DNA of 64,000 nucleotides from contig CAYPBW010000001.1 in the NCBI GenBank assembly GCA_964409055.1, positions 9,354-73,353 on the forward strand, read 5' to 3'. The position numbers and the translations under genes are program-made. Positions 29,448 to 47,016 of this stretch are shown here, in pieces. The notes beneath the pieces are model-generated. The model made no database searches and was not told the DNA's origin. It saw nothing but the letters and a program-made list of their open reading frames with translations. How positions within the stretch are numbered: position 1 is the stretch's first letter; each line of letters starts with the position of its first letter. This stretch comes from an uncultured Chitinophaga sp. (GTDB lineage: Bacteria > Bacteroidota > Bacteroidia > Chitinophagales > Chitinophagaceae).

Positions 29448-29465
29448 ATAGATCAATTTAGAACA

Positions 29466-29511
29466 CTAAAGTAGTACGGGGGTGCAGCCGGAGGTAGTGA
29501 CAATTGTCACA
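29466..29511 (-). promoter_or_regulatory. P2: CRP-type box plus -7-like element (sqr)
   Basis: The box AGTGACAATTGTCACA (29496-29511) has an inner 14-mer that is a perfect palindrome. TACTTTAG (29466-29473, minus strand) lies after a 22-nt spacer. Confidence 0.6.
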
Positions 29512-29764: not shown

Positions 29765-31189
29765 ATGAAAGTAGAACAAATTTATACCGGTTGCCTGGCA
29801 GAAGCAGCCTATTATATTGAGAGCAACGGGGAAGCTGCCATTATTGATCCTTTAAGGGAAACAAAGCCATATATTGATAAGGCGGAGCGAAATGGCGCAA
29901 AGATCAAATACATTCTTGAAACACATTTTCACGCAGATTTTGTTAGCGGTCACATTGACCTGGCTAAAAAAACAGGGGCAACAATTGTTTTCGGTCCTAC
30001 CGCTGCGCCGGCATACGATGTAAAGGTGGCCAGGGATGGCGAAGTACTTCAGTTAGGAGATGTCAAGATTAAAGTGTTGCATACACCGGGCCATACCATG
30101 GAATCCACCACTTATTTGCTGATAGATGAGAAAGGAAAGGATTATGCGATATTCACCGGCGATACATTATTTATCGGTGATGTGGGCCGCCCGGACTTAG
30201 TACAAAAAGTGAAGGCGGAGATCACTCCGCAGATTCTGGCCGGGTATCTATATAATTCACTCAGGAACCAGATCATGCCATTGGCTGATGATGTAATTGT
30301 ATATCCGGGACATGGGGCCGGCAGTGCCTGTGGTAAAAATATGAGTAAAGAGACCACTGATACGTTGGGCCATCAGAAGAAAGTCAATTATGCCCTTAGG
30401 GCTGATATGACAAAAGAAGAGTTCATTAAAGAAGTGACGGAAGGTTTGGTTGAGCCCCCACAGTATTTCCCTTACAATGTATTAATGAACCTGAAAGGGG
30501 GAATTGAAAGCATTGATGATATTATTGCAAGGGGTAAACGACCTCTTAGTGTCAAAGAGTTTCAGACCGTTTGGGAAAGTATGGAAGCTCTTGTATTGGA
30601 TACCCGGACCAAGGAAGCCTTTGTGGAAGAACATATTCCCGGATCAATATTCATTGGCATTGATGACAACTTCGCTCCCTGGTCAGGCACTTTGATAATG
30701 GATCTGAAGCAACCTATATTATTCCTTGCGGATGAAGGAAGGGAAGAGGAGGTAGTGGTTCGTTTGTCAAGAGTAGGATACGATAATGCTGTTGGTTTTC
30801 TACAGGGTGGTATTAAAGCCTGGAAAGAAGCAGGCTTTGAAACCGATTCCATAAAAGAAATAAGTGCTAATGATTTTGCCAGCCTCTACCAGATGGATTC
30901 TGAACATATAAACCTGCTGGATGCGAGACGTAAAAGTGAATTTGATTCTGAGCACCTGGTGGGTGCTGAAAACTTTCCCCTTGATTTCATTAACCAGAAC
31001 ATGTCGCAGTTAAGCAGGGATAAAAAGTACTTTATCCATTGTGCCGGCGGATATCGTTCTGTAATTATGGGTTCAATTTTAAAAGCAAGAGGCTTTGATA
31101 AATTGGTCAACATTCAGGGCGGCTATAAATCCTTAAGCCAGACAGGTCTTAAGAAGACACATTATGTAGAGCCCACTACCATGCTCTGA
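29765..31189 (+). CDS. Persulfide dioxygenase (MBL fold) fused to two rhodanese-like domains (CstB-like), copy 1
   Basis: 474 aa with ETHFHADFVSGH, HTPGHT and GDVGRPDL (MBL/PDO metal site), and a C-terminal rhodanese with active loop HCAGGYRS. Confidence 0.85.
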   Translation: MKVEQIYTGCLAEAAYYIESNGEAAIIDPLRETKPYIDKAERNGAKIKYILETHFHADFVSGHIDLAKKTGATIVFGPTAAPAYDVKVARDGEVLQLGDVKIKVLHTPGHTMESTTYLLIDEKGKDYAIFTGDTLFIGDVGRPDLVQKVKAEITPQILAGYLYNSLRNQIMPLADDVIVYPGHGAGSACGKNMSKETTDTLGHQKKVNYALRADMTKEEFIKEVTEGLVEPPQYFPYNVLMNLKGGIESIDDIIARGKRPLSVKEFQTVWESMEALVLDTRTKEAFVEEHIPGSIFIGIDDNFAPWSGTLIMDLKQPILFLADEGREEEVVVRLSRVGYDNAVGFLQGGIKAWKEAGFETDSIKEISANDFASLYQMDSEHINLLDARRKSEFDSEHLVGAENFPLDFINQNMSQLSRDKKYFIHCAGGYRSVIMGSILKARGFDKLVNIQGGYKSLSQTGLKKTHYVEPTTML

Positions 31190-31236: not shown

Positions 31237-31281
31237 TGTGATATTCGTCACGCATCACCACATCTGAGTTGGTTATTTTTG
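31237..31281 (+). promoter_or_regulatory. P5: CRP-type box plus perfect -7 element (thioredoxin 2)
   Basis: The box TGTGATATTCGTCACG (31237-31252) is followed 21 nt later by TATTTTTG (31274-31281, exact TAnnTTTG). The ATG is at 31297. Confidence 0.65.
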
Positions 31282-33018: not shown

Positions 33019-33591
33019 CTATTTCATTTCTGTAAAAATGATATGCCATACGCCTCTTAAGTCACCATCCTTGTAATTAAAAGCAGCATCATCTGGATAT
33101 TTTTTCTGGATCATATCCCATGTATCCGGTTTTATCTGTGTTTCTTTTTCCCCGTGACAGTTCAGGCACATTGCCTGAATAAATATGGGTTTGAAGTAGT
33201 GATGGTTTCCCTTTGAATCTTGCTTTACAATTGCTGTTAGTTGTTTATTTTCTTTTTTTTGTTCCAGGTAGGTCTTAATCACATCTTTTTCCATCTCATC
33301 CGGGGTATTGACGGAATTACGGATTTTATCAGAAGTTCTTTTAATTTGGATTCCTGCACCCGTATAAGTTTTTGTAAGATCTAATGCCGATGTATTACAA
33401 AAATCAACAGCGCCTGGAATGCCTCTTTCGCTGATTGCTTTCAGCAATGTATTTCTGAGTGTGTCAAATGTTTGTACTGTCAGTGAATCTCCTTTGTTTT
33501 TCCAATCTATAAATTCTTTTTTATCTTTTGATTCTTTGCAGGAAACCAAAAAAGTCAATAAGCCGGTAATGAGAAATGAATATTTCAACAT
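33019..33591 (-). CDS. DUF3365 (Tll0287-like) c-type heme lipoprotein
   Basis: 190 aa with lipobox LVSC and a single CLNCHG heme-attachment motif. Confidence 0.65.
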   Translation of the reverse strand: MLKYSFLITGLLTFLVSCKESKDKKEFIDWKNKGDSLTVQTFDTLRNTLLKAISERGIPGAVDFCNTSALDLTKTYTGAGIQIKRTSDKIRNSVNTPDEMEKDVIKTYLEQKKENKQLTAIVKQDSKGNHHYFKPIFIQAMCLNCHGEKETQIKPDTWDMIQKKYPDDAAFNYKDGDLRGVWHIIFTEMK

Positions 33592-33607: not shown

Positions 33608-34867
33608 TTAATATACAGCGGGGTGAAAACAATCTTCAGAGGGATAGATTTTCTTCAAGGTACAGCACATTCTGAAGTGTGCTACAAGGCCGGCAACCCC
33701 GGTAATAAATGCTATAACAATAATTGCAGTACTTAGTCCGATAAAATCTGCCAGAATACCGGCCAATAATGCACCTATTACATATCCGCTGTCTCTCCAA
33801 AAACGGAAAATGCTCAGTGTTTCTGCCCGTTGGGAAGGGTGGGTACTTTCCGCTACCACTGTCAAAAAGTTAGGATAAACCAATGCTGTTCCCAGCCCCA
33901 GAAGTATAGATGCGGTGATGAGCAGCCATAGTACAGAAGCTGTGGCAAGAATAAAAATTGCTGCAGCCTGTAACAACATACCCCCTGTGATGATCTGTTT
34001 TTTGCAATACACATCACCCATTTTTCCGGTGAAGAGTTGCATCACTCCCCATACAACCGGGTAGATTCCTGCAATGATCCCAATTTCCTGTATGGTAAGG
34101 GATTTTTGCAGCAGCAGAACAGGCAACAGTCCCCAAACAACTGCATCATTCATATTATTTACTAAACCATTCAACGTAACTGTACCTATATTTTTGTGCT
34201 TCCAGGTTGTTTCTTTCCATACATTTTTCATCAGTGCCAGTTTGCTGACAGTACTTTCTGCATGTACAAAATGTGTGGTATCTTTTACAAGAAATATAGA
34301 AATAAGTAAACCGGCGCCTGCCAAAAACAAACCTGGAATAAACGGATACCAGGCGTATCCATAGCTGCTGGCGAGAGAGCTGGCGAGATAGGAAGCCAAT
34401 CCTACAGATAAGTAACCGGCAAATTCATTGATGCCCATAGCAAGCCCACGGTTCTTTTGACCAACGATATCCACTTTCATGATAACGGTGGTGGACCAGG
34501 CCAATCCCTGGTTAATGCCAAGTAATACGTTGGCGATAATAACCCATGTCCAGGTTTCGGCATACATAAGAAGCAATGGTACAGGTAAGGCAAACAACCA
34601 GCCAGTAATCAGTATATGTTTTCGATTGAATCGTTTGCTCAGTTTTGCAACGCTATAATTGCTGATGGCTTTGGTAATGCCAAACGCCATAATAAAACTT
34701 AGAATTGCTGTATTGGCATCTAATCCAAATATATCTTTACCAAGACCTGGCAAAACGGCTCTTTCCAGGCCTATCATAGCACCGACAAAAGCATTAACCA
34801 GCACTAATAAAGAAAACTGTTGCCAGTTATCTTTTATTCCGTGTTGTATGGTATGCTCTCTGTTCAC
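33608..34867 (-). CDS. MFS transporter
   Basis: 419 aa with about 12 TM segments. The GTG start overlaps the stop of the upstream Kelch-like gene (GTGA). Confidence 0.85.
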   Translation of the reverse strand: MNREHTIQHGIKDNWQQFSLLVLVNAFVGAMIGLERAVLPGLGKDIFGLDANTAILSFIMAFGITKAISNYSVAKLSKRFNRKHILITGWLFALPVPLLLMYAETWTWVIIANVLLGINQGLAWSTTVIMKVDIVGQKNRGLAMGINEFAGYLSVGLASYLASSLASSYGYAWYPFIPGLFLAGAGLLISIFLVKDTTHFVHAESTVSKLALMKNVWKETTWKHKNIGTVTLNGLVNNMNDAVVWGLLPVLLLQKSLTIQEIGIIAGIYPVVWGVMQLFTGKMGDVYCKKQIITGGMLLQAAAIFILATASVLWLLITASILLGLGTALVYPNFLTVVAESTHPSQRAETLSIFRFWRDSGYVIGALLAGILADFIGLSTAIIVIAFITGVAGLVAHFRMCCTLKKIYPSEDCFHPAVY

Positions 34868-36180
34868 TTCTTGCTAAGATAAACTTTCCAGATAACAGGT
34901 GATGCCCGGCTTGGCTCTGCTTCATTACTCCAGAAAATATTGGGAGCCCTGCTGTCTATTCCACCTATAATGTAACCTGCTAGTAATGGCTTGGTTCCCA
35001 TTCTTTCTAATTGTAAAATGTCGTTGTTGCTATAGGAAGTTTCGTCCGCAGGTATGAATTCTGCAGCTGCTCCAAAATAGCCGGATAATTGTTCCGGTAA
35101 CAGGTATTCCTTTATGCCAGTTGCATTTCTTTCAACTACACTGATGTGTTTTACAAACGGTACATCATTATCAGTTTTTACTGTGCCAGACTGATCTATA
35201 TATTTCTGTGCAATACCGCCGAAGAAGATAGTATAAAGCGTTTTCTTTATTTTATCGTAAGCAGGTAGTGTAGCAGAATGGTAATGGCTGAATTGTTGAT
35301 TGAAATTTTTAACCTCATTATGATTGTTGGCCGTGATATCAATCAGCGTAGTGTAAGGAAGGTCTTTTTCATATTGAAATACTCCGGAGTAAATGGTCAG
35401 CATTTCCCTGCCATTTTCATCATATTGGTTCAGCAGGTTATAATCTCTCCGGTGCAGCAATGCAGAATCGGTTACTGCGGTGTAATTTTCAATCGCTATC
35501 TCGTTGCCTTTTTCCGTTATTAAGAATTTTCTGATCTGGTTAGTGTATTTTTGACTGAAGCCGGGTCCATGATCGGGTCCATGCGGGTTATAACGGCCAT
35601 CAAATCGTTGTCCGCCCACCAGGTAAAACAAATTATCCAACTTATTCAAATGGCCACCTGTTACGGCCATACGTTCATCTATCAGTTGTGTAATAAATGA
35701 AGTTATATCCGTATTATTAATGATCCCGTCTATCGTTTCTTTTACATTAATTTTTAATAAGGCGGGATGTGTAATATGGTCCCTTTTTGTTTCGCTATAG
35801 CCATAGCCGCCAATAACGATCAGATCATTTTGCTGCTGATAAAACTCCGTATTGCTGCTTTGTAACTGTTCAGCAAGCAGGGCAGGAAAACCGCTTACAG
35901 ATTTTTTCCAGACTTTTTCTGTTTTTACATCCAGAACAATAAGATCAGTGTTATTATGCTTTTTATTAAAGGAAGCAAAAGGTTGCCTGCGATGCAGCCC
36001 GTCCGTTCTTCCGCCAACCAGCAGTATTTTATTCCCTGATTTAGCCCAGGCATACGACTGGAGGCCGGAGAACCCTTCAGGGATCATGGGTTCGAGAGAA
36101 ATCTTATATGGAAAATTTTCCTGGCTAGTTCCTGTCAGGTTCAATAAGATTATTATCAGTGCAGTCAGAAAAGCTTTCAT
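34864..36180 (-). CDS. Secreted six-bladed Kelch-like beta-propeller protein, function unknown
   Basis: 438 aa with a signal peptide. Six blade signatures are spaced about 50-70 aa apart: LLVGGRTDG, LIVIGGYGYS, FYLVGGQRFDG, LTIYSGVFQY, TIFFGGIAQKY, AGYIIGGIDS. Confidence 0.6.
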   Translation of the reverse strand: MKAFLTALIIILLNLTGTSQENFPYKISLEPMIPEGFSGLQSYAWAKSGNKILLVGGRTDGLHRRQPFASFNKKHNNTDLIVLDVKTEKVWKKSVSGFPALLAEQLQSSNTEFYQQQNDLIVIGGYGYSETKRDHITHPALLKINVKETIDGIINNTDITSFITQLIDERMAVTGGHLNKLDNLFYLVGGQRFDGRYNPHGPDHGPGFSQKYTNQIRKFLITEKGNEIAIENYTAVTDSALLHRRDYNLLNQYDENGREMLTIYSGVFQYEKDLPYTTLIDITANNHNEVKNFNQQFSHYHSATLPAYDKIKKTLYTIFFGGIAQKYIDQSGTVKTDNDVPFVKHISVVERNATGIKEYLLPEQLSGYFGAAAEFIPADETSYSNNDILQLERMGTKPLLAGYIIGGIDSRAPNIFWSNEAEPSRASPVIWKVYLSKK

Positions 36181-36201: not shown

Positions 36202-36246
36202 CTAAATTATTGGATTGCTAATAGCCGTGTTGTGATTTTCATCACA
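36202..36246 (-). promoter_or_regulatory. P7: perfect CRP-type box plus -7-like element (Kelch-MFS-DUF3365 operon)
   Basis: The box TGTGATTTTCATCACA (36231-36246) is followed 21 nt downstream by TAATTTAG (36202-36209, minus strand). The ATG is at 36180. Confidence 0.65.
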
Positions 36247-36259
36247 CTATAATGAAAAA

Positions 36260-36281
36260 GCCAGGGGAAGAATCCCCCGGC
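36260..36281 (-). terminator. Hairpin after the YeeE/YedE pair
   Basis: gccagggg-aagaat-cccccggc (1 mismatch). On the minus strand it is followed by ctttttcatt. Confidence 0.45.
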
Positions 36282-36309
36282 TTACTGCTAAATATTAAAA
36301 AAACTCTTT

Positions 36310-36843
36310 TTAATGAGGTAGTTTGCTCCTGAATTTTCCATACACCCAGGTTCCCACAATGGCGCTAAAAAGGGTAACAATAATAACCAATGCACCTGTT
36401 CCGATTTGTGCAAACAGCGGGCCCGGGCAGGCGCCGGTAATAGCCCAGCCAAATCCAAAGATTAAAGCACCATAGATATTACCCTTATTAAACTTCTTAT
36501 CAACAAACTCAATGGGTTCACCATAAATGGTTTTGACTTTGAATTTTTTTATCAGCCACACAGAGATGATACCTACTGCTACTGCAGAACCGATTACACC
36601 AAACATGTGGAAACTCTGGAGCCTGAACATTTCCTGAATTCTGAACCAGGAGATAACTTCTGCTTTAATGAGAATTATTCCAAACAATATTCCAGCTACG
36701 GCATATTTAAGATTATACCACCAGGGATGTTTTAATTCTGACTCGTTAAAACAAACAGCATCTAATGAACGAACTTCAAAATCTGTGTTCTGTGTAAGAA
36801 ATTCATGATGTTTCTTTTCCTGCAATGTTTCATTTACACTCAT
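36310..36843 (-). CDS. YeeE/YedE-family half-transporter (sulfur-compound transport), 177 aa
   Basis: Multi-TM protein with the GWAITGACPGPLFAQIG motif. Confidence 0.8.
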   Translation of the reverse strand: MSVNETLQEKKHHEFLTQNTDFEVRSLDAVCFNESELKHPWWYNLKYAVAGILFGIILIKAEVISWFRIQEMFRLQSFHMFGVIGSAVAVGIISVWLIKKFKVKTIYGEPIEFVDKKFNKGNIYGALIFGFGWAITGACPGPLFAQIGTGALVIIVTLFSAIVGTWVYGKFRSKLPH

Positions 36844-36849
36844 GCTATA

Positions 36850-37413
36850 TTATAATTTTAAAATTAAAGGAAGAATAAGGTTGGCTACAATAAAACCACC
36901 GGTCATAAAACTGATGGTGGCAACCAGTGAGGGCCATTGAAGGTTTGACAAGCCCATAATTGCATGGCCGCTGGTACATCCACCAGCATACCGGGTTCCG
37001 AATCCTACAAGGAATCCACCGACAACCATCATGATAATGCCTTTAGCACTGCTAAGTGCCTGCCAGTTAAATAAATCGGCAGGTACAAAGGAGTCATAGT
37101 TGGTAACACCATAGGTTGCCAGCTCTGCCTGTAATTTTGGATTGACTTGTATGGGTTCAGGATTTCCTAATAAACTAACCGCAAGAAATCCCCCACCTAC
37201 GATTCCTGCAACAAAAAAGAGATTCCATATTTCCTTTTTCCAGTCGTATTGAAAGAAGGGAATCTTTGCGGGTACACAAGCAGCGCATACATGCCGCAGC
37301 GAGGACGATATGCCAAAGGATTTATTACCGATGATGAGTAGTACAGGCACCATAAGGCCTATTAGTGGACCGGCTACATACCAGGGCCAGGGTTGTTTCA
37401 GAAAATCTAACAT
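36850..37413 (-). CDS. YeeE/YedE-family half-transporter, 187 aa
   Basis: Multi-TM protein with the [14 protein letters not shown] motif typical of YeeE/YedE. Confidence 0.8.
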
Positions 37414-37436: not shown

Positions 37437-37481
37437 CAAAATTGATTTTAATTGAAAGTGTAACGAGTGATTTATGTCACA
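37437..37481 (-). promoter_or_regulatory. P8: CRP-type box plus -7-like element (YeeE/YedE pair)
   Basis: The box AGTGATTTATGTCACA (37466-37481) is followed 21 nt downstream by CAATTTTG (37437-37444, minus strand). The ATG is at 37413. Confidence 0.6.
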
Positions 37482-37488
37482 GGTTAAG

Positions 37489-38493
37489 TTATTTCTTTTT
37501 TGCGAGTTCTTCTTTTTGGGCAATGATAGGTTTATAAGGTCCATATTTATGCTGGTTTTCTGAAAATCCATCTGCATAGGGGCCAAACGGATGATCAAAT
37601 GGTTTTTTGGAAATATCCGGCCAGTCATTGCTTAAATCTTTTCCAGGCCTGGGCTGACTATTTACATAAGCTGCCACATCCCAGGCTTCTTCTGTTGTAA
37701 GCTTTGGATTATCATGTGTGGCTTGTTTAAAGGGCATATTACTTTTTACATAACCAGCAAAATTGCTCAGGCGAAACAGACCCGCACCATCATTGTAACT
37801 ATGTTCTCCCCAAAGTGGAGGATATTCATAGCTAACGCCATTCAGAGTGAGCTGCCCCTCGCCGTTTGCTCCGTGACAACTTTGGCACTGTGCAGTGTAC
37901 ACTGCCTTCCCTTTTACCGGATCAGCAGCCCTGTCCAGATAGTTTAATTTAGCAATACCGCTTCCCACAGGTCGTTCTCCCTTCTTAACATCCTTACCCA
38001 ACCATTTGATATAAGCATAAATGGCCTGGTACTCCCTGCTGTTGCTATCGGGAGCACTACCATTCAGGCTTCGTTCAAAACAATCGCCTACTCTCTTATA
38101 AATACTTTCCATACTGCCACTCCTGTCCCGGAACCTTGGATAGGTAGAATAAACAGCGCTGTAATTGTTTCCCCATGTTTTCTTTCCGGCATTGAGGTGA
38201 CAGTTCTGGCAATTCATTCCATTGGTAATAGCAGCAACAGAGCCATGAGGTCCGAAATACCGGGCTGTATTTACAATGATATCTTCACCATAAATAACCT
38301 GTTCTCTTTCTTCTCCCTGCAATTCATTATCAGTAAACAGGCTGGGGGTTACCCAACTGCTGTCTGTAGTTGCAGTTACAAGAGATTTTTTTTCGGATGG
38401 TTTTAACGCTTTTGTAATTTCAATTAAAGCAACTATCCCAACTGCGGCGGCAATAATGACTACCTGCCAGTTTGATCTGATGGTGTTCCACAT
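37489..38493 (-). CDS. Membrane-anchored diheme c-type cytochrome, TsdA (thiosulfate dehydrogenase)/SoxA-like
   Basis: ATG at 38493 (MWNTIRSNWQVVIIAAAVG..., signal anchor). Two CxxCH motifs (CQNCH, CQSCH). A conserved Cys in RVGDCFERSLNG sits between the hemes, where TsdA carries its heme-ligating Cys. SNMPF lies near the C-terminus. Confidence 0.65.
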   Translation of the reverse strand: MWNTIRSNWQVVIIAAAVGIVALIEITKALKPSEKKSLVTATTDSSWVTPSLFTDNELQGEEREQVIYGEDIIVNTARYFGPHGSVAAITNGMNCQNCHLNAGKKTWGNNYSAVYSTYPRFRDRSGSMESIYKRVGDCFERSLNGSAPDSNSREYQAIYAYIKWLGKDVKKGERPVGSGIAKLNYLDRAADPVKGKAVYTAQCQSCHGANGEGQLTLNGVSYEYPPLWGEHSYNDGAGLFRLSNFAGYVKSNMPFKQATHDNPKLTTEEAWDVAAYVNSQPRPGKDLSNDWPDISKKPFDHPFGPYADGFSENQHKYGPYKPIIAQKEELAKKK

Positions 38494-38503
38494 AATTTTT
38501 AGC

Positions 38504-40198
38504 TTATCTGAATTCGTAAGTTGTTCCTTGTAGTTGTGTAAGCAGTGTATGTGGTTGGTCGGTTGCGGTAGCCCGCATTTCCAGTTTTGGTGAAACCGGT
38601 GAGTGTACCTCCAGGTATTCTTCAATAACTGTGTGCATCAATACACCTAGTTTTTTTGGATTTTTTACTTTTTCCATACGGCAAAGTGTATCGTCCGGAT
38701 CGCCTTCTCTTTCACAGGCAACGATGCTGTATTCTTTATCAAGGTTCAGCGGTTCTCCTTTTATCTTCACCCAGTTTACTCTTTTTCCAAACTCATTATC
38801 AATAGTAAAATTCACTTCCATGCCTGCGAATCGCACAAACCAGCCGCCAAAGCGTTTCGACGGATCTTTGGCAAATGCGTTTTGTAATTCTTTTTCCAGC
38901 CAGTCCCAAACCTGCCTGCCGGTAACTGTCCCTGTCTTTGCTTCGCTATCAACAGGCAGCATGTTCCATAAAAACTCTTTGGTGATTTCAGCTTTCCCGG
39001 TTTTTGGATCTACTGCTAATGGTTGACAGAAACGGAAGCCATTGCTTAACGCAATATCTGTTTTGAATTTCCAGTGTATAGCATCAGTAATCAGGTTATC
39101 CATTGGTGTTTCCATTACAAAATATCTTACCAGCGGGGTAGTGGTGGTTCCAATTACTTTGGATAATTGCTGTTTATACGGCGCAGCTGCTTTATCTATC
39201 TGAGCCTGCAATTTTTTATCAGCAGGGTACTTGGCGGGGTCTACATCAAGTAACTGGTATTTGTAACTCTTCATTTTTCCATTTTCCACTTCAATATCCA
39301 GTTTACCAAGAAATGAACCAAAAGCACCGCATTCAACTACTTTGGTGTATTTGCCTTCAATAGGAACTCTTACTCTTTCATGTGTATCTGCACCCAAAAT
39401 GAAATCTGCGCCTGCCACTGCTGAGTTGTTTGCCAGTCCTACTTGTTGCGCCAGGCCCATATGCGTAACAATGAAAATAATTCCGCAGCCTTCCACTTCC
39501 TTTAGCAGTTTAATGTATTTAGCCACATTAAAATCAGCATGTTCAAATCGAATTCCTTCGCTGTAAGCCGGAGACTGACGTTTAGGTATCAGGTGGTCGG
39601 TATAGCCAATGAAACCAACTTTGGCTCCGGCAATATACTTTACCCAATAGGGCGGGTAAATCAATTCGCCATTATCTGTATCGTTAGTTTTATGCCACAT
39701 ATTGGCACAAATCTTTGCTGCCGTGGCATGTCCCATATCATAAAGCATTTTCTTTTTCTTATAGACCACTTCCCAATTGCCCGGAAGAATGAGATCATAA
39801 TTAAAATCGTTGAGCAGGGGTATCAATGCTTCACCTTCTGTCAGTGATGCTACGGCACTTCCATGGAAATAGTCGCCCCCATCCAACAATAGGGTGTTGG
39901 ATGGATTTTGCCTGCGAAAATGATTGATCATGGTTTTTAATACTGCTAACCCGCCTCTCTTTCTGTACACTGCTTTCCCGTTTTCCCAGAAAAATTCATC
40001 GTGGGTATGAAGCTGGGCATGAATATCGGAGGTATAAAGTATTGTAAACCTGCCTGGTGTTCCAGTCTCAGTTTTATTATTTAGCTGTTCTGTAGCAGCT
40101 ATAGCTACTGAACCAAGGGTAGTACCCATGCCTGCCAATGCAGCTTTTTTCAAAAAATCCCGGCGGGAATTAGAATCCATGTTTTTCAATGAAGACAT
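38504..40198 (-). CDS. Tat-exported dinuclear metallophosphoesterase/5'-nucleotidase-fold protein, divergent SoxB-like
   Basis: ATG at 40198. Twin-arginine signal SRRDFLKKAALAGMG. Motifs TSDIHAQ, DGGDYFHGS, GNWE (not the GNHE of UshA type), and C-terminal FGGWFVRFAGMEV...GKRVNWVKIKGEPL. Confidence 0.65.
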   Translation of the reverse strand: MSSLKNMDSNSRRDFLKKAALAGMGTTLGSVAIAATEQLNNKTETGTPGRFTILYTSDIHAQLHTHDEFFWENGKAVYRKRGGLAVLKTMINHFRRQNPSNTLLLDGGDYFHGSAVASLTEGEALIPLLNDFNYDLILPGNWEVVYKKKKMLYDMGHATAAKICANMWHKTNDTDNGELIYPPYWVKYIAGAKVGFIGYTDHLIPKRQSPAYSEGIRFEHADFNVAKYIKLLKEVEGCGIIFIVTHMGLAQQVGLANNSAVAGADFILGADTHERVRVPIEGKYTKVVECGAFGSFLGKLDIEVENGKMKSYKYQLLDVDPAKYPADKKLQAQIDKAAAPYKQQLSKVIGTTTTPLVRYFVMETPMDNLITDAIHWKFKTDIALSNGFRFCQPLAVDPKTGKAEITKEFLWNMLPVDSEAKTGTVTGRQVWDWLEKELQNAFAKDPSKRFGGWFVRFAGMEVNFTIDNEFGKRVNWVKIKGEPLNLDKEYSIVACEREGDPDDTLCRMEKVKNPKKLGVLMHTVIEEYLEVHSPVSPKLEMRATATDQPHTLLTQLQGTTYEFR

Positions 40199-40231
40199 CG
40201 GCAATCGTTTTAGGTGAAAAATTACAAGAAT

Positions 40232-40276
40232 TAAAAATGCTTTCTTTAAGCAACCCGGTTCGTGACTACAGTCACA
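40232..40276 (-). promoter_or_regulatory. P9: CRP-type box plus weak -7-like element (soxB-like / tsdA-like operon)
   Basis: The box CGTGACTACAGTCACA (40261-40276) is followed 21 nt downstream by CATTTTTA (40232-40239, minus strand). Confidence 0.55.
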
Positions 40277-40295: not shown

Positions 40296-41714
40296 TTAAA
40301 ACTGGTAATTTAAAACAATGTTCCAAAGACTCATATCTGCTTTATTGATAACGTATTTGTCGTTTCCGTAACTACTGCCTGTTTTTCCTTTATAAACATA
40401 CAGCAGTTGCGTTTCCAGACCCTTTAATATACCGCCAAATTTATAGCGGGCATCAATATTCAACTGGTTATATGAGGGCATTCCATATTTATTGAACCTG
40501 AAATCCGTTACATCCGGCAACTCATAATGCCCGAAGGCTATTGAAGTTGTGATCCTGGCCTTCGGTATTTTGTAATTGACTTTGCCCACCACAGCATGTG
40601 CATCTCCCAGCCCTTCATTTCTTTCTCTCGGTAAAAAGGTGAAGAAAGGATCCCGGCCCCATTCTCTCGGCATAAGGTATCTTCCTTGAGCAGTAATACG
40701 GTTATAGTTCAGGCTTGTTTCCCATTTTTCATACTTCCATCCCAGCCTGGTTCCGAAAGTTATTGCCCTGGCACCCTTTTCAACATAGGCTTTTGAAGGA
40801 TCATTATTGCCACCATCCTTTACTGCATCCTGCCTTATAAACTGTGCCGCTGCAAAAAGCTTTGAATTTTTGGATATCGGATATTCATAATCTGCCTGCA
40901 GCATAGCACTGTTAAAGATATTTTCTGTGTATTGGTTCCAAAACTGGAGTTTTAACTGGTCATTTATTTGGGTAGTAATGCCGGCCAGAAAAATTCCTTT
41001 GCTTTCCAGGTTTCCGGCATATTCAGATTTTATACCCTCATCATTTACCCCCACAGGATATACCCCGATAGACTCTGCTACGTTAAACCACTTAACTGTA
41101 CTTCTGGGCGAAATGCCGTATAAATATCCAAACTGCAACCTGAGTTTTTTTATAGAGTTCATTTCTGTCCAGATACCTTCCACTTCTGTCGGCCTCATCC
41201 GGCCATCCTGCAGGTTAATAAAAGGAGTATTGATCAGTTGTTTACCAAGGGTAATGTGATTGTTACTAAAGTGATACTTGATATATAATTCTTCCAAGCG
41301 GTCAATATCTTTTTTATTAGCAGGGTCTTCAATATCGAACAACCCCGTTTCGTACCTGTTCATTTGTTTGGTTTTGGAATCAGGCACGGAAAGGTCGGAG
41401 GAGCCAATATTATAAACAAAAAATCCGCTCACCCCCACCTGGAAATTCTTAAACCTGCCTGTTTCAAATTTTATTCCGCCTCCCACTGCGTTGGCATAAT
41501 AATCTGTCAGTCCCTCTTTATTATCTGTTGCCATAAAATAATACCGGAAATGGCCACTGAATGTGCCCTTTCTGAATGCGGATAAAATCGAAGTGGAATC
41601 AGCTTCGCTCTCTTTTTCCTTCCATAAACCCGGTTTCTCATTTATCTCCTGGTGCTGTGTATATCCTGGAAGTGAAATCACTATTGCAGTGATGAGTATG
41701 AGAATCTTCTTCAT
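40296..41714 (-). CDS. Outer-membrane beta-barrel porin (OprD-like)
   Basis: 472 aa with a signal peptide, alternating beta-strand pattern throughout, and a C-terminal ...VLNYQF aromatic terminus. Confidence 0.65.
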   Translation of the reverse strand: MKKILILITAIVISLPGYTQHQEINEKPGLWKEKESEADSTSILSAFRKGTFSGHFRYYFMATDNKEGLTDYYANAVGGGIKFETGRFKNFQVGVSGFFVYNIGSSDLSVPDSKTKQMNRYETGLFDIEDPANKKDIDRLEELYIKYHFSNNHITLGKQLINTPFINLQDGRMRPTEVEGIWTEMNSIKKLRLQFGYLYGISPRSTVKWFNVAESIGVYPVGVNDEGIKSEYAGNLESKGIFLAGITTQINDQLKLQFWNQYTENIFNSAMLQADYEYPISKNSKLFAAAQFIRQDAVKDGGNNDPSKAYVEKGARAITFGTRLGWKYEKWETSLNYNRITAQGRYLMPREWGRDPFFTFLPRERNEGLGDAHAVVGKVNYKIPKARITTSIAFGHYELPDVTDFRFNKYGMPSYNQLNIDARYKFGGILKGLETQLLYVYKGKTGSSYGNDKYVINKADMSLWNIVLNYQF

Positions 41715-41767: not shown

Positions 41768-42199
41768 TCAGAAACCGGCTTTTATATAACTCCAGCCTTG
41801 TTCTTGTTTTCGTACGATTTCGCCGATTCCCATTTTTACAAAAGTGGCTTCTGCTATGATGGTCTCTTTAGGAATTTTTCGCTCCATCATGGTGTTTTCG
41901 CAGGCAATGAACGTAATACCCATTTGTTTGAAATGGCTGATCTTTTCCTGTTGCGTTGTTTTGCCTTTTGTCAGAAAATCAAGACCCGGGCCATGCGCCA
42001 CAACTTCTATTACCACACTGTCGCCCCATCCGGCTTTAAGGTGCTTCAGGTTATTCATCAACCCTTTCCATACCAATGTATCGTTACTGCTTAACTGCAT
42101 TACAATACGATGCTGTGAAACCGTTCCACTTGTGTTTTGAGCCCATCCCTGCAATGCAAATAAGGATATAATGGCAGCCAGTCTGATTCTTTTGTGCAT
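41768..42199 (-). CDS. Exported DsrE/DsrF-like family protein
   Basis: ATG at 42199 gives MHKRIRLAAIISLFALQGWAQ (Sec signal). RIVMQLSS...IEVVAHGPGLDFL...FIACENTM matches the DsrE-like fold and Cys position. Confidence 0.65.
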   Translation of the reverse strand: MHKRIRLAAIISLFALQGWAQNTSGTVSQHRIVMQLSSNDTLVWKGLMNNLKHLKAGWGDSVVIEVVAHGPGLDFLTKGKTTQQEKISHFKQMGITFIACENTMMERKIPKETIIAEATFVKMGIGEIVRKQEQGWSYIKAGF

Positions 42200-42216: not shown

Positions 42217-42639
42217 TTATTGTTCCTTTGCTCCGGTCCAATTAGTATAGCCACCATTCAGGTCATACAGTTTTGTAAAACCCATTTCTTTCATGATGCT
42301 CATGGCGTCTATACTTCTTTTTCCACTGCGGCAATAGACCAGGTATGTTTTGTTCTTGTCGAGGCTTGAAATCTGTGCTTTGAACTCTTCTTTTTTTAGC
42401 ACATCAATTTGTGTAGCATGGGGTATATGGCCAGCTTTATATTCATCTGTTGTCCTTACATCCAGCACAACGGTGTTCTTTTTCTTGCTGAGCCGTTCAA
42501 ATTTTTTCTGACTTATTGTTTTGCCTGCCGGATTATCCTGGGCTTGTGCGCAAACAGAACCACATAAGCCAGCCAGCATTAAGGCTGCAGCAATAAATAA
42601 CCAACTGATGCTTTTTATTTTTTTTAGTATAGTACTCAT
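42217..42639 (-). CDS. Exported single-domain rhodanese
   Basis: 140 aa with a signal peptide (…CGSVCAQAQD) and active loop CRSGKRS. Confidence 0.85.
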   Translation of the reverse strand: MSTILKKIKSISWLFIAAALMLAGLCGSVCAQAQDNPAGKTISQKKFERLSKKKNTVVLDVRTTDEYKAGHIPHATQIDVLKKEEFKAQISSLDKNKTYLVYCRSGKRSIDAMSIMKEMGFTKLYDLNGGYTNWTGAKEQ

Positions 42640-42947
42640 GCTATTTTAGTTATCAGACTATTCCAGGGGCCTCCGTTATAGGCCTCAATACCGGCAGATT
42701 TCAGTATGCCTTTTGCCATTCCGCTACGGGCACCGCTTCTGCATACAGTGATTACAGGTTTATTCAGCTTTTTAAGTTCAGCTATTTTAGTACGTATGCT
42801 GTCAAGCGGATAGTTTTTTGATCCGGGAATATGCCCTGATTTGTACTCACCAGCAGACCGAACATCTATTATAACAGCCCCCTTACCGATAAGCTCTTTG
42901 TAGTTGACAGAAGTTCCTCCAAATAGTTTCTTTAAAAATCCAATCAT
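42636..42947 (-). CDS. Single-domain rhodanese (cytoplasmic)
   Basis: 103 aa with active loop CRSGARS. 4-nt overlap with the next gene. Confidence 0.85.
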   Translation of the reverse strand: MIGFLKKLFGGTSVNYKELIGKGAVIIDVRSAGEYKSGHIPGSKNYPLDSIRTKIAELKKLNKPVITVCRSGARSGMAKGILKSAGIEAYNGGPWNSLITKIA

Positions 42948-42958
42948 TGTTTTTAGTA

Positions 42959-43240
42959 TTAATTTAATAAGAATTGCATATCTCCTAAACCACCGCCGTT
43001 ATATACTTCAGTAATACCATTTTGTTTCAGAATGCTTACTGCCATTCCGCTCCTGTTGCCGCTGCGGCAATAGAGCACTATAGGCGTTTTTATTTCTTTG
43101 AGTTCCTTTATCTTGTACATGACCTCTTCCAGGGGAATATTTTTGGCTCCGGGTACATGTTCCATGTCAAATTCCCACGGACTTCTTACATCGACAATTA
43201 CTGTCTCTGATTTTTTTATTATCTCTTTTAATGACTGCAT
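42959..43240 (-). CDS. Single-domain rhodanese (cytoplasmic)
   Basis: 93 aa with active loop CRSGNRS. Confidence 0.85.
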   Translation of the reverse strand: MQSLKEIIKKSETVIVDVRSPWEFDMEHVPGAKNIPLEEVMYKIKELKEIKTPIVLYCRSGNRSGMAVSILKQNGITEVYNGGGLGDMQFLLN

Positions 43241-43290: not shown

Positions 43291-43941
43291 TTATAATGTT
43301 TTTTTGGCTAAGTACCAGTCCACCTTTTCTACCGTGTCGTCAGCTAGCCTTGCTTCGTAATCAGCCAACGTTTTAGGTGGGGGTACGATTACTTTGTCAC
43401 CCGGTTCCCAGTTAAGAGGGATTGCCACTTTGTTAGCATCGCTTGTTTGCAATGCAAGCAGCACTCTTTTTATTTCATGCATATTCCTGCCAACGTTCAG
43501 CGGGTAATACATGATAAGGCGAATCGTTCCCTTAGGGTCTATAAAAAATACGGCTCTTACGGCAGCAGTTTCGCTTTCATTGGGTTGCAGCATGCCGTAT
43601 AACTTGGCTACTTTCATGTCCAGGTCGGCTATGATGGGAAATTGGAAATACACACCGGTGTTTTTTTTCACATTATCAACCCAGGCAATATGTGAATGAA
43701 CACTGTCGATACTTAACCCTATCAGTTTAGTATTATGCTTGTCAAAGAAGCTTTCCTGTTCCATTGCAAAGCCGCTCATTTCTGTTGTACATACGGGTGT
43801 GAAATCGGCAGGGTGTGAGAACAGGATCACCCAACTATCTTTTGCATAGTCTGAAAACTTGATCACTCCTTTGGTAGTAACAGCCGAGAAGTCAGGAGCT
43901 TTATCACCTATCCTTGGCATTGTTATAGTATTTGGTTCCAT
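43291..43941 (-). CDS. 1-Cys peroxiredoxin (Prx6 type)
   Basis: 216 aa with the FTPVCTTE peroxidatic Cys motif and no resolving-Cys motif. Confidence 0.9.
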   Translation of the reverse strand: MEPNTITMPRIGDKAPDFSAVTTKGVIKFSDYAKDSWVILFSHPADFTPVCTTEMSGFAMEQESFFDKHNTKLIGLSIDSVHSHIAWVDNVKKNTGVYFQFPIIADLDMKVAKLYGMLQPNESETAAVRAVFFIDPKGTIRLIMYYPLNVGRNMHEIKRVLLALQTSDANKVAIPLNWEPGDKVIVPPPKTLADYEARLADDTVEKVDWYLAKKTL

Positions 43942-44023: not shown

Positions 44024-45442
44024 TTATAATAGTGTCGAAGGACACACATAGTCGCTTATTTTGAACTTACCACTTTCTTTCAGTGCCTTGAAACCGCTTT
44101 TTACATCAACCAGGTTGTCAAATCCCCTGGCACGGAGAATTGAGTTGAATATCATAGAGCGATAACCACCGGCACAATGAACATAATAGGTCTTTTTCTT
44201 ATCGATCTGGGCCATGCTGTCGTTGATAAAGTCAAGTGGTGCATTTTCTGCTTCTACCAGGTGTTCACTCAGGTATTCACTTTTTTTACGGACGTCAAGA
44301 ATGTTTATCTTTTCTTTCTGTGATATGTCCGCAAGTTCATCTGCAGTTACAGATTTAATCATATCAACTTCCTTTCCGGCATTTTTCCAGGCATTGAAAC
44401 CACCTTTCAGGTAACCAATGGTAAAATCATAACCGACCCTGGCTAATCTTGTTACTACTTCTTCTTCACGACCCTCGTCAGTTACAAGTAATATTTCCTG
44501 TTTGATATCGGGAATCATAGCGCCAACCCATGGGGCAAACTGGCCATCAATACCAATATTTATTGAGTTAGGAACAAAGCCCAGCGCAAATGTTTGCGGA
44601 TCTCTTGTATCCAGTACTAATGCACCGGTTTCATTGGCTGCAGTTTCAAAAGCATCCGGACTTAAGGCATGCTGACCTCTTTCGAGCACTTTATCAATAC
44701 TGTCATACCCTTGTATATTCATCATCACATTCAGCGGGAAATAAGCAGGAGGAGCAACAAGCCCTGTTGTAACTTCTTTGATGAATTCTTCTTTGGTCAT
44801 ATTTGCCCGGAGTGCATAATTTGTTTTTTTCTGATTGCCCAGTGTATCAGTTGTTTCTTTACTCATGTTTTTGCCACAGGCACTGCCAGCACCGTGGGCA
44901 GGATATACGGTAATATCATCAGCCAGTGGCATGATCTTATTTCGGAGAGAGTCAAACAAATAACCGGCTAATTTATCCTGTGTAAGGTCGGCTGCCACTT
45001 TCTGTGCAAGGTCAGGACGACCTACATCACCGATAAACAATGTATCACCGGAGAACAAACCAACATCCTTACCGTTTTCATCTTTCAGCAGGTAGCAGGT
45101 ACTTTCCATCGTATGACCGGGAGTATGCAGTACTTTCAATGTTACATTGCCTACTTTAAATTCCTGGCCATCTTCAGCAATCAGTGCATCAAAGGCAGGT
45201 TTAGCATTTGGACCGTACACAATGGGTGCGCCGGTTTTTTTGCTAAGGTCAAGGTGACCGCTGACAAAGTCGGCATGAAAGTGTGTTTCAAAAACGTACT
45301 TGATCTTTGCATTGTTACGTTCAGCCTTTTGGATATAAGGCTCTACCTCACGCAGCGGATCAATTACAACAGCTTCACCATTACTCTCGATGTAATAAGC
45401 ACCTTGTGCCAAGCAACCGGTATAAATTTGTTCTACTTTCAT
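44024..45442 (-). CDS. Persulfide dioxygenase (MBL fold) fused to two rhodanese-like domains (CstB-like), copy 2
   Basis: 472 aa, colinear with copy 1 and roughly 65-70% identical by eye, with the same ETHFHADFVSGH and HCAGGYRS motifs. Confidence 0.85.
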   Translation of the reverse strand: MKVEQIYTGCLAQGAYYIESNGEAVVIDPLREVEPYIQKAERNNAKIKYVFETHFHADFVSGHLDLSKKTGAPIVYGPNAKPAFDALIAEDGQEFKVGNVTLKVLHTPGHTMESTCYLLKDENGKDVGLFSGDTLFIGDVGRPDLAQKVAADLTQDKLAGYLFDSLRNKIMPLADDITVYPAHGAGSACGKNMSKETTDTLGNQKKTNYALRANMTKEEFIKEVTTGLVAPPAYFPLNVMMNIQGYDSIDKVLERGQHALSPDAFETAANETGALVLDTRDPQTFALGFVPNSINIGIDGQFAPWVGAMIPDIKQEILLVTDEGREEEVVTRLARVGYDFTIGYLKGGFNAWKNAGKEVDMIKSVTADELADISQKEKINILDVRKKSEYLSEHLVEAENAPLDFINDSMAQIDKKKTYYVHCAGGYRSMIFNSILRARGFDNLVDVKSGFKALKESGKFKISDYVCPSTLL

Positions 45443-45474: not shown

Positions 45475-45519
45475 CAAATTTCGGATCTGGAAACATGCTG
45501 AACAGTGACATCAATCACA
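45475..45519 (-). promoter_or_regulatory. P10: CRP-type box plus -7-like element (PDO-rhodanese 2, probably with prx)
   Basis: The box AGTGACATCAATCACA (45504-45519) is followed 21 nt downstream by GAAATTTG (45475-45482, minus strand). The ATG is at 45442. Confidence 0.6.
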
Positions 45520-45520
45520 A

Positions 45521-46330
45521 TCAATGCCCACCGCCACCGGGGAAGAATAACTCTTTAACAATTATATAAATACCCATTACGAGTACAAACCAACCGAACC
45601 CTTTTTTCAGGCCATCAGCAGATACTTTTTTACTGAGTGCATTACCAATGAAAATCCCAACAATGGCAAGACCGGTAACGGACAGTAAAAGTGTCCAGTC
45701 CATGTTTTGTTTGCCAAGGTCACCGGTGAACCCGATTAGTGATTTTGCAGCTATGATTAATAGAGAAGTTCCCACTGCCTGTTTCATTGGCAGCTTACTC
45801 AGTAACACCAATGCCGGGATAATTAGGAAACCGCCTCCGGCACCCACTAACCCTGTGAGCATACCTACCACAGCGCCTTCCAGTAGTATCATTGGATAAT
45901 TGAATTTTTGCTCGCCAGTTTCTTCCGATTTCCCTTTTTTGTTCCTGATCATAGATACAGAAGCAAATACCATCAAAATGGCAAACAGTATCATCATCAG
46001 CAATGATTTAGTTACAACAAAATCACCGATATGAAATACTTCTTTGGGAATGGCGGGTACAAGGAAGGCTCTTGTTGCAAACACTGCTATAATCGAAGGG
46101 ATACCGAAGATGAGAGCAGTTTTCAGGTTCACTTCACCGCTTTTATATTTCGGGTAAGTGCCTACCAGGCTGGTAGCCCCTACAATAAAAAGTGAATAAG
46201 CGGTGGCAAGTACGGGGTTTACCCCAAAAAGATAAACGAGAACAGGTACAGTAAGAATAGAACCGCCTCCGCCAATTAAGCCAAGAGAAACACCGATCAG
46301 AAGAGAAGCTATGTATCCGATTATTTCCAT
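45521..46330 (-). CDS. TauE/SafE family sulfite/anion exporter
   Basis: ATG at 46330 (MEIIGYIASLLIGVSLGLIGGGGSILTVP), 269 aa, about 8 TM segments with an internal repeat. Confidence 0.85.
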   Translation of the reverse strand: MEIIGYIASLLIGVSLGLIGGGGSILTVPVLVYLFGVNPVLATAYSLFIVGATSLVGTYPKYKSGEVNLKTALIFGIPSIIAVFATRAFLVPAIPKEVFHIGDFVVTKSLLMMILFAILMVFASVSMIRNKKGKSEETGEQKFNYPMILLEGAVVGMLTGLVGAGGGFLIIPALVLLSKLPMKQAVGTSLLIIAAKSLIGFTGDLGKQNMDWTLLLSVTGLAIVGIFIGNALSKKVSADGLKKGFGWFVLVMGIYIIVKELFFPGGGGH

Positions 46331-46346
46331 GCAAAATTTATTTATG

Positions 46347-46391
46347 CAAAGGTGAACGGAATACAATTGCTGTACTGTGACTCAAATCACA
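46347..46391 (-). promoter_or_regulatory. P11: perfect CRP-type box plus -7-like element (tauE)
   Basis: The box TGTGACTCAAATCACA (46376-46391) is followed 21 nt downstream by CACCTTTG (46347-46354, minus strand). The box starts 8 nt after the regulator stop codon. Confidence 0.65.
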
Positions 46392-46398
46392 GCACCCA

Positions 46399-47016
46399 CT
46401 ACAATAATTCGATCATATTTCTGTGCAGCTTGAGCAGGTTGCGCTGCTCCATTTTTTTTAAGAGTCTTGAAATTACTTCTCTCGAACTATTCAGGTCATC
46501 GGCTATCTGCTGGTGAGAAGTTTCAATTATCTTTTTCCCTGTAGTATCGGCATGCCTTTTCAGGTAGAATTCAAGTCTCTCATCCATATTTCGAAAGGCC
46601 ACATTGTCAATCACAGCCAACAATTCATCAAAACGGTTTCTGTAGGTCATAATGACAAACTGATACCATGTTTTGTATTTGTTCATCATATCATCCATCA
46701 ACTGGATGGGTATCATGAGGACTTCTGTATCTTCTTCAGCTTTTGCCATAATCTCACTTTGCTGTGACTGTATGGCACAGATCATTGTAACAGCACAAGC
46801 CTGGCCCGGTCCTAAATAATACATCAGAAATTCTCCGCCATCAGGATTTTCCCGGTAGATCTTTACCCTGCCTTCCAATACCAAAGCCGTGGATTTAATA
46901 TACTGGCCGGTACGCATAATGATTTCTCCCGCAAGAAAGGTTCTTTGCACCGCCTCTTTTTCAATCAGCTCAATTAAGCCGGGCTCAAACTGCGGAAATA
47001 GTTCTTTCCAATTCAT
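46399..47016 (-). CDS. Crp/Fnr family transcriptional regulator (205 aa)
   Basis: N-terminal beta-roll effector domain, a long dimerisation helix, and the C-terminal HTH ETSHQQIADDLNSSREVISRLLKKME with R-E-x-x-S-R. Its only two Cys lie in GPGQACAVTMICAI. Confidence 0.9.
   Translation of the reverse strand: MNWKELFPQFEPGLIELIEKEAVQRTFLAGEIIMRTGQYIKSTALVLEGRVKIYRENPDGGEFLMYYLGPGQACAVTMICAIQSQQSEIMAKAEEDTEVLMIPIQLMDDMMNKYKTWYQFVIMTYRNRFDELLAVIDNVAFRNMDERLEFYLKRHADTTGKKIIETSHQQIADDLNSSREVISRLLKKMEQRNLLKLHRNMIELL

Follow-up and report, generated by a model that had tools for sequence, protein, structure and literature searches.

A SoxB-like hydrolase gene paired with tsdA in a Chitinophagaceae-like sulfur island, a candidate core of thiosulfate oxidation independent of Sox carriers

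Introduction

A thiosulfate oxidation pathway that dispenses with SoxYZ and consists of TsdA, SoxB and SdoA/B has been described in Erythrobacter flavus 21-3 (Zhang et al., ISME J 2020, PMC7608252; follow-up PMC9426585). The genome of this organism is devoid of a Sox system, and its thiosulfate-induced cluster encodes TsdA, three SoxB-domain proteins of the 5'-nucleotidase family and SdoA, a fusion of a metallo-β-lactamase (MBL) domain with a rhodanese (PMC7608252). Deletion of tsdA abolishes thiosulfate consumption; deletion of soxB leads to accumulation of tetrathionate, no zero-valent sulfur and less sulfate; the sulfur is oxidized by SdoA/B (PMC7608252). According to Table S5 of the same paper, TsdA and SoxB homologues occur in Bacteroidetes (Hymenobacter, Maribacter) that have no soxYZ. 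Later papers take the route from thiosulfate via TsdA to tetrathionate and via SoxB to sulfate and S0 as established, and a Sox evolution paper of 2026 (PMC13500833) leaves TsdA and SoxB-like proteins unmentioned. Here, a gene pair for a SoxB-like hydrolase and a TsdA-type cytochrome is described, which is located on contig CAYPBW010000001.1 of an uncultured bacterium; the window analysed comprises 64 kb, and all coordinates refer to it.

The acidophile S4-intermediate pathway (DoxDA/TQO plus TetH) provides a second point of reference, as it follows the course proposed below for the gene pair, in which tetrathionate is formed from thiosulfate and hydrolysed to sulfate, sulfur and thiosulfate. 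The proteins involved are different. The oxidase is a quinone oxidoreductase there and a cytochrome here, and TetH is a PQQ-like β-propeller acting at acid pH, whereas a metallophosphoesterase fold is found in the hydrolase described here, which may act in the manner of TetH but is not a member of that family.

Position and layout of the gene pair

The pair consists of the following two genes.

38504..40198, minus strand: SoxB-like hydrolase with dinuclear metallophosphoesterase fold; 564 amino acids (aa), ATG start, twin-arginine translocation (Tat) signal RRDFLKK
37489..38493, minus strand: TsdA-type thiosulfate dehydrogenase, a dihaem cytochrome c; 334 aa, ATG start, N-terminal hydrophobic anchor, C-terminal extension of about 50 aa

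The hydrolase gene lies upstream, and its stop codon is separated from the start codon of the cytochrome gene by exactly 10 nt (TAA gctaaaaatt ATG) with no terminator in between. A TTG two codons upstream of the ATG would serve as an alternative start of the hydrolase and give 566 aa. A previous interpretation of this DNA, made without database searches (the sequence-only reading), had named the hydrolase motifs SRRDFLKKAALAG, GNWE, DGGDYF and GGWFVRFAGM as well as the spacing of 10 nt to a downstream cytochrome with two CxxCH motifs; all four motifs are present in the translated open reading frame (ORF) and the spacing is exact. The host is a Chitinophagaceae-like member of Bacteroidota, and close homologues of the hydrolase carry the names of proteins from Chitinophagaceae metagenome-assembled genomes (MAGs).

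Sequence and predicted structure of the hydrolase

The N-terminal Tat signal SRRDFLKKAALAG (SRRDFLKK) is recognized by TIGR01409 (19.5 bits, cut-off 16.7) and weakly by the Pfam model TAT_signal, and Pfam further assigns the domains Metallophos and 5_nucleotid_C. The best family model is the SoxB equivalog TIGR04486 with 258 bits at a cut-off of 550, while bona fide SoxBs reach 772 and 838 bits with this model and the UshA model NF007109 scores 110 bits with the hydrolase (cut-off 600). The best match among PDB sequences is SoxB of T. thermophilus (2wdc, E=6e-20). These values bear out the description of the protein as SoxB-like yet diverged, as had been proposed in the sequence-only reading. 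In the AlphaFold (AF2) model (predicted local distance difference test, pLDDT, 90.9) SoxB is the top fold match with template modelling (TM) scores of 0.79–0.82. Nucleotidase structures in the closed form score almost equally (TM 0.72–0.83), and the fold therefore tells nothing about the substrate.

The roles of the SoxB residues are taken from the alignment. Motifs I, II and IV as well as an Arg of the C-terminal domain are conserved throughout the alignment. The catalytic His of the nucleotidase motif GNHE is replaced by Trp in all SoxB and SoxB-like clades, which is a shared derived character. Within motif III the clade of the window protein has GNWE with Asn where canonical SoxB has xHWE with His, and within motif V it has ADTH with Asp in place of the GHTH with His of canonical SoxB. 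The C-domain block reads GGW instead of the canonical GGD. An insertion of about 45 aa, which follows motif I in canonical SoxB, is absent from the hydrolase and from all SoxB-like clades in a MAFFT alignment with Paracoccus SoxB and four further canonical or near-canonical SoxBs; the match to TIGR04486 begins at about model position 110. The positions of the base-stacking Phe residues of UshA (Phe429 and Phe498 of the E. coli enzyme) are non-aromatic in the window clade.

A homologue search among 1.8 billion cluster representatives yielded 224 clusters at E<1e-30. In a crude neighbour-joining (NJ) tree the window hydrolase is found in a Tat-bearing clade that is sister to a clade of about 545 aa and a signal-less clade of about 480 aa, with canonical SoxB and the UshA-like proteins lying apart from all three of these SoxB-like clades. 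A phylogeny of this kind had been suggested in the sequence-only reading, and in it the hydrolase falls outside ordinary nucleotidases. Identities to the window hydrolase are as follows.

Runella: 51%
Pontibacter: 44%
clade of about 480 aa: 28–31%
Paracoccus SoxB: 29%
UshA: 24%

Database labels for the relatives are divided between SoxB (JGI, K17224-type names) and 5'-nucleotidase (NCBI).

The hydrolase thus resembles canonical SoxB (Paracoccus, T. thermophilus; 2wdc, 4uwq) in its two-domain 5'-nucleotidase fold with a dinuclear metal site, in Tat export, in the Trp replacing the catalytic His and in the C-domain Arg, and by homology it is likely as well to release sulfate hydrolytically from an S-SO3 group. 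It differs in the lack of the insertion, of xHWE, GHTH and GGD, and of SoxYZ/SoxAX partners. With 5'-nucleotidases of the UshA/CD73 type it has in common the two-domain fold, motifs I, II and IV and the Asn of motif III, but it has Trp for His, no stacking Phe and a context of sulfur genes. Judged by its sequence, the protein is a relative of SoxB, closer to SoxB than to 5'-nucleotidases and outside canonical SoxB.

Two further features are common to the Tat-exported clade and the clade of about 545 aa, namely a pair of Cys residues at positions 495 and 506 (ACER...LCR), probably a periplasmic disulfide, and a conserved C-terminal tail ATD.P..LSQ..G..YEFR. The signal-less 480-aa clade and canonical SoxB have neither the Cys pair nor the tail.

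The cytochrome and its haem ligands

The cytochrome contains the haem motifs CQNCH and CQSCH with RVGDCFERSLNG in between. Its N-terminal hydrophobic segment WQVVIIAAAVGIVALIEI may act as a signal anchor or as a signal that is not cleaved off. Pfam assigns the SoxA/TsdA domain PF21342 with 39 bits (cut-off 27) and PF00034 with 59 bits, and PDB sequence searches retrieve A. vinosum TsdA (4wq7, E=4.5e-40 over 209 residues) and a TsdBA fusion (5lo9, E=5e-35). In the alignment the block GDCFERSLNG harboring the Cys ligand of haem 1 is identical in both proteins, and the CxxCH motifs of haem 1 and haem 2 and the Met position are kept, with KSNMPF corresponding to KHKMPL in A. vinosum. A Cys ligand arrangement of the TsdA/SoxA type, which had been claimed for the cytochrome beforehand, is supported by this alignment of both the Cys and the Met ligand, and the protein is a genuine TsdA.

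The residue preceding the haem-2 Met is Asn in the window protein, and for this reason the K208N variant of the A. vinosum enzyme is its best PDB match. TsdA of C. jejuni has Asn-Met at haem 2 as well, and that enzyme favours tetrathionate reduction.

Compared with the TsdA enzymes of A. vinosum and C. jejuni, the window protein shares the two CxxCH haems, the block with the axial Cys ligand, the haem-2 Met position and about 210 alignable residues. The crystallised A. vinosum TsdA is without the C-terminal extension of the window protein (DWPDISKKPFDHPFGPY...HKYGPY, conserved), and the latter also has the N-terminal hydrophobic anchor segment. Orthologues on plasmids of Runella, Pontibacter and Hymenobacter possess both the anchor and the extension of about 50 residues. 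There is no gene for a TsdB partner near the window tsdA.

Linkage of the two genes and search for Sox partners

The linkage was analysed in 80 metagenome loci with hydrolases 59–95% identical to the window protein. TsdA is encoded in the hydrolase cluster in 65 of the 80 loci and directly adjacent to the hydrolase in 55, in the following arrangements.

TsdA adjacent, co-oriented, downstream of the hydrolase: 34/80 loci
TsdA adjacent, co-oriented, upstream of the hydrolase: 21/80 loci
TsdA elsewhere in the same island: 10/80 loci
TsdA absent, short flanks: 12/80 loci
TsdA absent, at least 3 kb on both sides: 3/80 loci

Since the adjacency persists through a reversal of the gene order, the two proteins appear to be functionally coupled.

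No ORF of the window ends with the SoxY-type C-terminus GGCGG. A phmmer search with SoxX, SoxY, SoxZ, SoxA and SoxC of Paracoccus against the 654 window ORFs of at least 40 aa gave nothing below E=0.6, the best match being that of SoxA to the TsdA ORF (E=0.62). The absence of SoxY- and SoxZ-like ORFs from the window, which the sequence-only reading had pointed out, is thereby confirmed. Homologues of SoxX/Y/Z/A/C are likewise lacking from the 80 related loci with a total of 1.02 Mb.

Among more distant relatives of the Tat clade the contexts are heterogeneous: P0123–P0125 have next to them a PQQ-type propeller, a TauE/DsrE/TusA set or no sulfur genes, and the TsdA linkage is hence a property of the Bacteroidota subclade rather than of the whole Tat clade. 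For a further relative, P0121, the contigs are too short for a reading of the context. P0125 (42% identity; L009:6240-7805, L010:5389-6954) is encoded directly downstream of a 521-aa PQQ_2 β-propeller. The tetrathionate hydrolase TetH of acidophiles has a PQQ_2-type β-propeller fold, and the arrangement may be another polythionate-linked pairing.

The SoxB-like clade of about 480 aa (loci L003, L004, L005; L002:6378-7823) is widespread, has no signal peptide and carries the motifs xHWE and GHTH. Its members in Bacteroidota and Alphaproteobacteria are 46–56% identical and occur in similar sulfur islands, often beside TlpA/DsbA genes. They are presumably cytoplasmic, and such a location of a SoxB-like enzyme fits poorly with a TsdA product formed in the periplasm.

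The surrounding sulfur island

The hydrolase–tsdA pair is part of a sulfur island of about 19 kb, which includes two fusions of a persulfide dioxygenase (PDO) with a rhodanese and a sulfide:quinone oxidoreductase (SQR). In order of position the island and its vicinity contain the following features.

28251..29456, minus strand: type II SQR (human SQOR 6oi5, E=8e-121), divergent from the PDO gene
29765..31189, plus strand: second PDO–rhodanese fusion (PF00753 + PF00581)
33019..33591, minus strand: Tll0287-like haem protein (PF11845, one CxxCH)
34864..36180, minus strand: secreted protein of 438 aa with N-terminal signal peptide and its own CRP-like box upstream
36258..36283, minus strand: strong hairpin resembling an intrinsic terminator, at the end of the soxB-like/tsdA/yeeE transcription unit; 7 GC pairs in an 11-bp stem, with a T-rich tail behind it
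36310..36843, minus strand: YeeE/YedE-type transporter, half B (DUF6691; PF04143/PF20398)
36850..37413, minus strand: YeeE/YedE-type sulfur (thiosulfate) transporter, half A (PF04143)
40296..41714, minus strand: OprD-family outer-membrane porin (PF03573), also present in the plasmid islands of Runella and Hymenobacter
41768..42199, minus strand: secreted DsrE-family protein with one invariant Cys, Cys100 (PF02635, signal peptide), a candidate periplasmic sulfur carrier
42217..43240, minus strand: three single-domain rhodaneses (PF00581 each)
43291..43941, minus strand: 1-Cys peroxiredoxin (PF00578 + PF10417)
44024..45442, minus strand: PDO (MBL fold)–rhodanese fusion, SdoA/B-like (PF00753 + PF00581)
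45521..46366, minus strand: TauE/SafE sulfite exporter (PF01925)

Further genes of the island encode a thioredoxin, a TlpA-like redoxin, a TPMT-like methyltransferase and a major facilitator superfamily (MFS) transporter. With SQR and two PDO–rhodanese fusions the island spans the range from sulfide to sulfate. The Tll0287-like protein may serve as a redox partner in the periplasm, or it may be a sensor. For the secreted 438-aa protein neither a Pfam nor a PDB sequence match was obtained; its gene is followed by those of the MFS transporter and the Tll0287-like protein, and homologues are present in 5 of the 80 related loci.

Much of this gene set recurs in the related loci, with the following counts.

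YeeE: 53/80 loci
PDO–rhodanese: 46/80 loci
TauE: 43/80 loci
OprD porin: 40/80 loci
DsrE-like protein: 34/80 loci
rhodanese: 30/80 loci
Crp/Fnr: 23/80 loci

The same set is plasmid-borne in Runella rosea, Pontibacter akesuensis and Hymenobacter sp. NBH84, the hydrolase on the Hymenobacter plasmid being of the 480-aa type.

The DsrE-like protein matches MTH1491 in the PDB (1l1s, E=2e-12), and its Cys100 is invariant in 35 of 35 sequences. It is also encoded in islands of Runella, Pontibacter, Hymenobacter and Novosphingobium, and in 13 of its 34 metagenome loci the gene directly neighbours the SoxB-like or the TsdA gene.

CRP-like boxes and the putative regulator

The palindrome TGTGA-N6-TCAC is matched 10 times in the window at an expectation of 0.34. 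Nine of these matches, representing seven sites of which two match on both strands, are located in or beside the sulfur island and almost all of them are intergenic. The sites and the candidate regulator gene are as follows.

40262..40276, minus strand: CRP/FNR-like box TGTGACTGTAGTCAC, with its downstream edge 63 nt before the start codon of the SoxB-like gene
37467..37481, minus strand: CRP/FNR-like box in the spacer that separates the tsdA stop codon from the yeeE start codon, possibly an internal promoter
29497..29511: CRP/FNR-like box between the divergent SQR and PDO genes
31237..31251; 36231..36246; 45505..45519; 46376..46391; also 60360..60374: other CRP/FNR-like boxes
46399..47016, minus strand: Crp/Fnr-family protein, candidate regulator of the island (PF00027 + PF13545)

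Seven transcription units of the island have their promoter regions marked by these boxes. The 80 related loci contain 95 such boxes, of which about 80 immediately precede island genes, among these the SoxB-like gene (25), PDO (23), YeeE (14) and TauE (14). The dedicated CRP-type promoter postulated earlier for the gene pair is thus only partly retained: the site exists and is conserved, but about seven such sites are spread over the island, and this one is not dedicated to the pair. Because the same box precedes other island genes both in the window and in the related loci, the box at 40262–40276 belongs to a regulon, and the island appears to form one regulon of a Crp/Fnr-type regulator that would bind these boxes. 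A scan for sigma-70 promoters, a type of scan ill-suited to Bacteroidota, revealed no enrichment (27 found, 26.8 expected in shuffles).

Two Cys residues in the cyclic nucleotide-binding domain of the Crp/Fnr protein, Cys74 and Cys80 (GQACAVTMIC), are conserved in 24/24 and 23/24 island-linked homologues, respectively. In the islands of Hymenobacter, Novosphingobium and Bosea the crp/fnr gene is replaced by one for an ArsR/SmtB-family regulator, a family that includes known persulfide sensors. On account of the conserved Cys pair and of this replacement, the Crp/Fnr protein may be an undescribed thiol-based sensor of sulfane sulfur or polythionates.

Comparison with the Erythrobacter flavus pathway

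The window and E. flavus agree in the combination of TsdA, a SoxB-domain hydrolase and PDO–rhodanese fusions in one island and in the lack of SoxYZ/SoxAX, and the window hydrolase is a 5'-nucleotidase-family protein with SoxB as best family match, which is how such proteins were recognized in that study (PMC7608252). The differences concern the arrangement, with tsdA and soxB six locus tags apart in E. flavus and 10 nt apart in the window, as well as the hydrolase itself, which is Tat-exported and of the GNWE/ADTH clade, the regulator of Crp/Fnr type and the Chitinophagaceae-like host. The organisms in Table S5 of PMC7608252 carry the 480-aa signal-less type on plasmids, which suggests that the characterised E. 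flavus enzyme belongs to another clade than the Tat-exported one. A match of a 20-nt E. flavus knock-out primer to an Alistipes MAG was rejected as fortuitous, as about one match is expected by chance in 596 Gb.

The TsdA plus SoxB-like arrangement is accordingly not new, and the window is a well-preserved and tidy new example of a published pathway.

Proposed pathway

From the identities of the two enzymes, the export signal, the linkage and the absence of Sox partners, the pair is probably the periplasmic core of a thiosulfate oxidation that is independent of Sox carriers and of the E. flavus type. The membrane-held TsdA would join two molecules of thiosulfate to tetrathionate at its His/Cys-ligated haem and pass the electrons to the respiratory chain; both this direction and the acceptor we infer. 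The Tat-exported hydrolase would then cut the terminal sulfonate off tetrathionate, or off a thiosulfonate derived from it, as sulfate and leave sulfane sulfur and thiosulfate, a step that is proposed from SoxB homology and from the genetics of E. flavus. Tetrathionate or polythionates had already been considered as an alternative substrate in the sequence-only reading, and such a substrate would fit a SoxB-like enzyme acting downstream of TsdA as in E. flavus (PMC7608252).

The thiosulfate released by the hydrolase would re-enter the cycle, while the two PDO–rhodanese fusions would convert the sulfane sulfur in the cytoplasm to sulfite or thiosulfate, and YeeE, TauE and the OprD porin would transport sulfur anions. 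Sulfane sulfur derived from sulfide would be added to the same pool by SQR. In heterotrophs the route of SQR and PDO normally stops at thiosulfate; here it would be prolonged to sulfate.

Several observations weigh against this assignment. To our knowledge no SoxB-like enzyme has been proven in vitro to hydrolyse tetrathionate. The catalytic direction of the window TsdA is unreadable from its sequence, as haem 2 has Asn-Met like the C. jejuni enzyme. The SoxB-like radiation comprises three or more clades, and with the signal-less one of about 480 aa the window protein shares only 28–31% identity. With Asn and Asp in place of His two putative metal ligands are altered, and the chemistry of the window subclade may consequently differ. 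A soxYZ pair may be encoded elsewhere in the same genome, of which only 64 kb are visible. The likeness to the E. flavus SoxB D0Y83_01365 is one of gene set and description and not of compared sequences, and the evidence from E. flavus is genetic and stoichiometric, an in vitro assay of the hydrolase being contained neither in PMC7608252 nor in its follow-up.

Alternative interpretations

A variant of the proposed pathway replaces SoxYZ by the DsrE-like protein. Tetrathionate would thiosulfonate the Cys of this protein, from which the hydrolase would free sulfate and leave a persulfide. An archaeal DsrE3A reacts with tetrathionate to a thiosulfonated Cys (PMC4175335), the substrate of canonical SoxB is a protein-bound group of the same type, and a signal-bearing DsrE-like protein with an invariant Cys recurs in islands of several phyla. 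On the other hand the gene is found in less than half of the related loci and is rarer there than those of YeeE, PDO or TauE, the window protein is part of an uncharacterised MTH1491-like branch and not a DsrE3, and the E. flavus authors account for their data with free tetrathionate. An interaction of the DsrE-like protein with the hydrolase or with TsdA would be purely hypothetical, and we consider the variant rather unlikely. If it were true, TsdA, the DsrE-like protein and the SoxB-like hydrolase would constitute a minimal three-protein analogue of the Sox cycle, under a Crp/Fnr regulator whose Cys pair might sense sulfane sulfur.

Alternatively, TsdA might for the most part reduce tetrathionate, as it does in Campylobacter jejuni, with the hydrolase acting on S-sulfocysteine, organic thiosulfonates, higher polythionates or thiosulfate. 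TsdA enzymes are reversible, and both the Asn-Met at haem 2 with the K208N variant as best PDB match and the distant Tat-clade relatives without a TsdA neighbour (one by the PQQ-type propeller, one in no sulfur context) would be in line with such a use. Contrary to this, the island represents an oxidative, aerobic set with O2-dependent PDOs, SQR and an exporter of sulfite, nearly all hydrolases of the close clade have TsdA adjacent to them, and the genetics of E. flavus puts the hydrolase after TsdA on an oxidative route. A primarily reductive or otherwise different role of the pair is therefore decidedly unlikely.

It is highly improbable that the hydrolase is a divergent SoxB serving a SoxYZ encoded elsewhere, i.e. 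part of a scattered canonical Sox system. The visible 64 kb of the genome and the K17224-type SoxB names given to relatives by JGI pipelines leave some room for this, but the TIGR04486 score is less than half of the cut-off and canonical SoxBs score 770–840 bits, the insertion of about 45 aa of the aligned canonical SoxBs is missing, SoxX/Y/Z/A/C are found in 0 of the 80 related loci, and soxYZ is absent from E. flavus and from two Bacteroidetes genomes with TsdA and SoxB homologues (PMC7608252, Table S5).

An ordinary periplasmic 5'-nucleotidase or phosphoesterase as a chance neighbour of the cytochrome gene, as might be read from the two Pfam domains, the NCBI names and the near-equal fit of closed-form nucleotidases (TM 0.72–0.83), has very little to recommend it in view of the Trp in place of the GNHE His, the UshA score of 110 bits at a cut-off of 600, the non-conserved stacking Phe residues, the placement within the SoxB-like radiation apart from UshA-like sequences in the NJ tree and the linkage to TsdA and sulfur genes kept in 65 of the 80 loci.

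Implications

The example in the window leaves the current understanding unchanged; what remains of interest is the enzymology of the hydrolase and the possible DsrE-like carrier. Being unusually compact and conserved (adjacent in 55 of 80 loci) and plasmid-borne in several genera, the Bacteroidota version would be convenient for an in vitro proof of tetrathionate hydrolysis by a SoxB-like enzyme. For its carriers, Chitinophagaceae and relatives that are common in soil, freshwater and wastewater metagenomes, the pathway would allow aerobic heterotrophs to take sulfide and thiosulfate to sulfate and elemental sulfur without Sox. As it runs without a Sox system, surveys of Sox genes would miss the sulfur cycling of these organisms.

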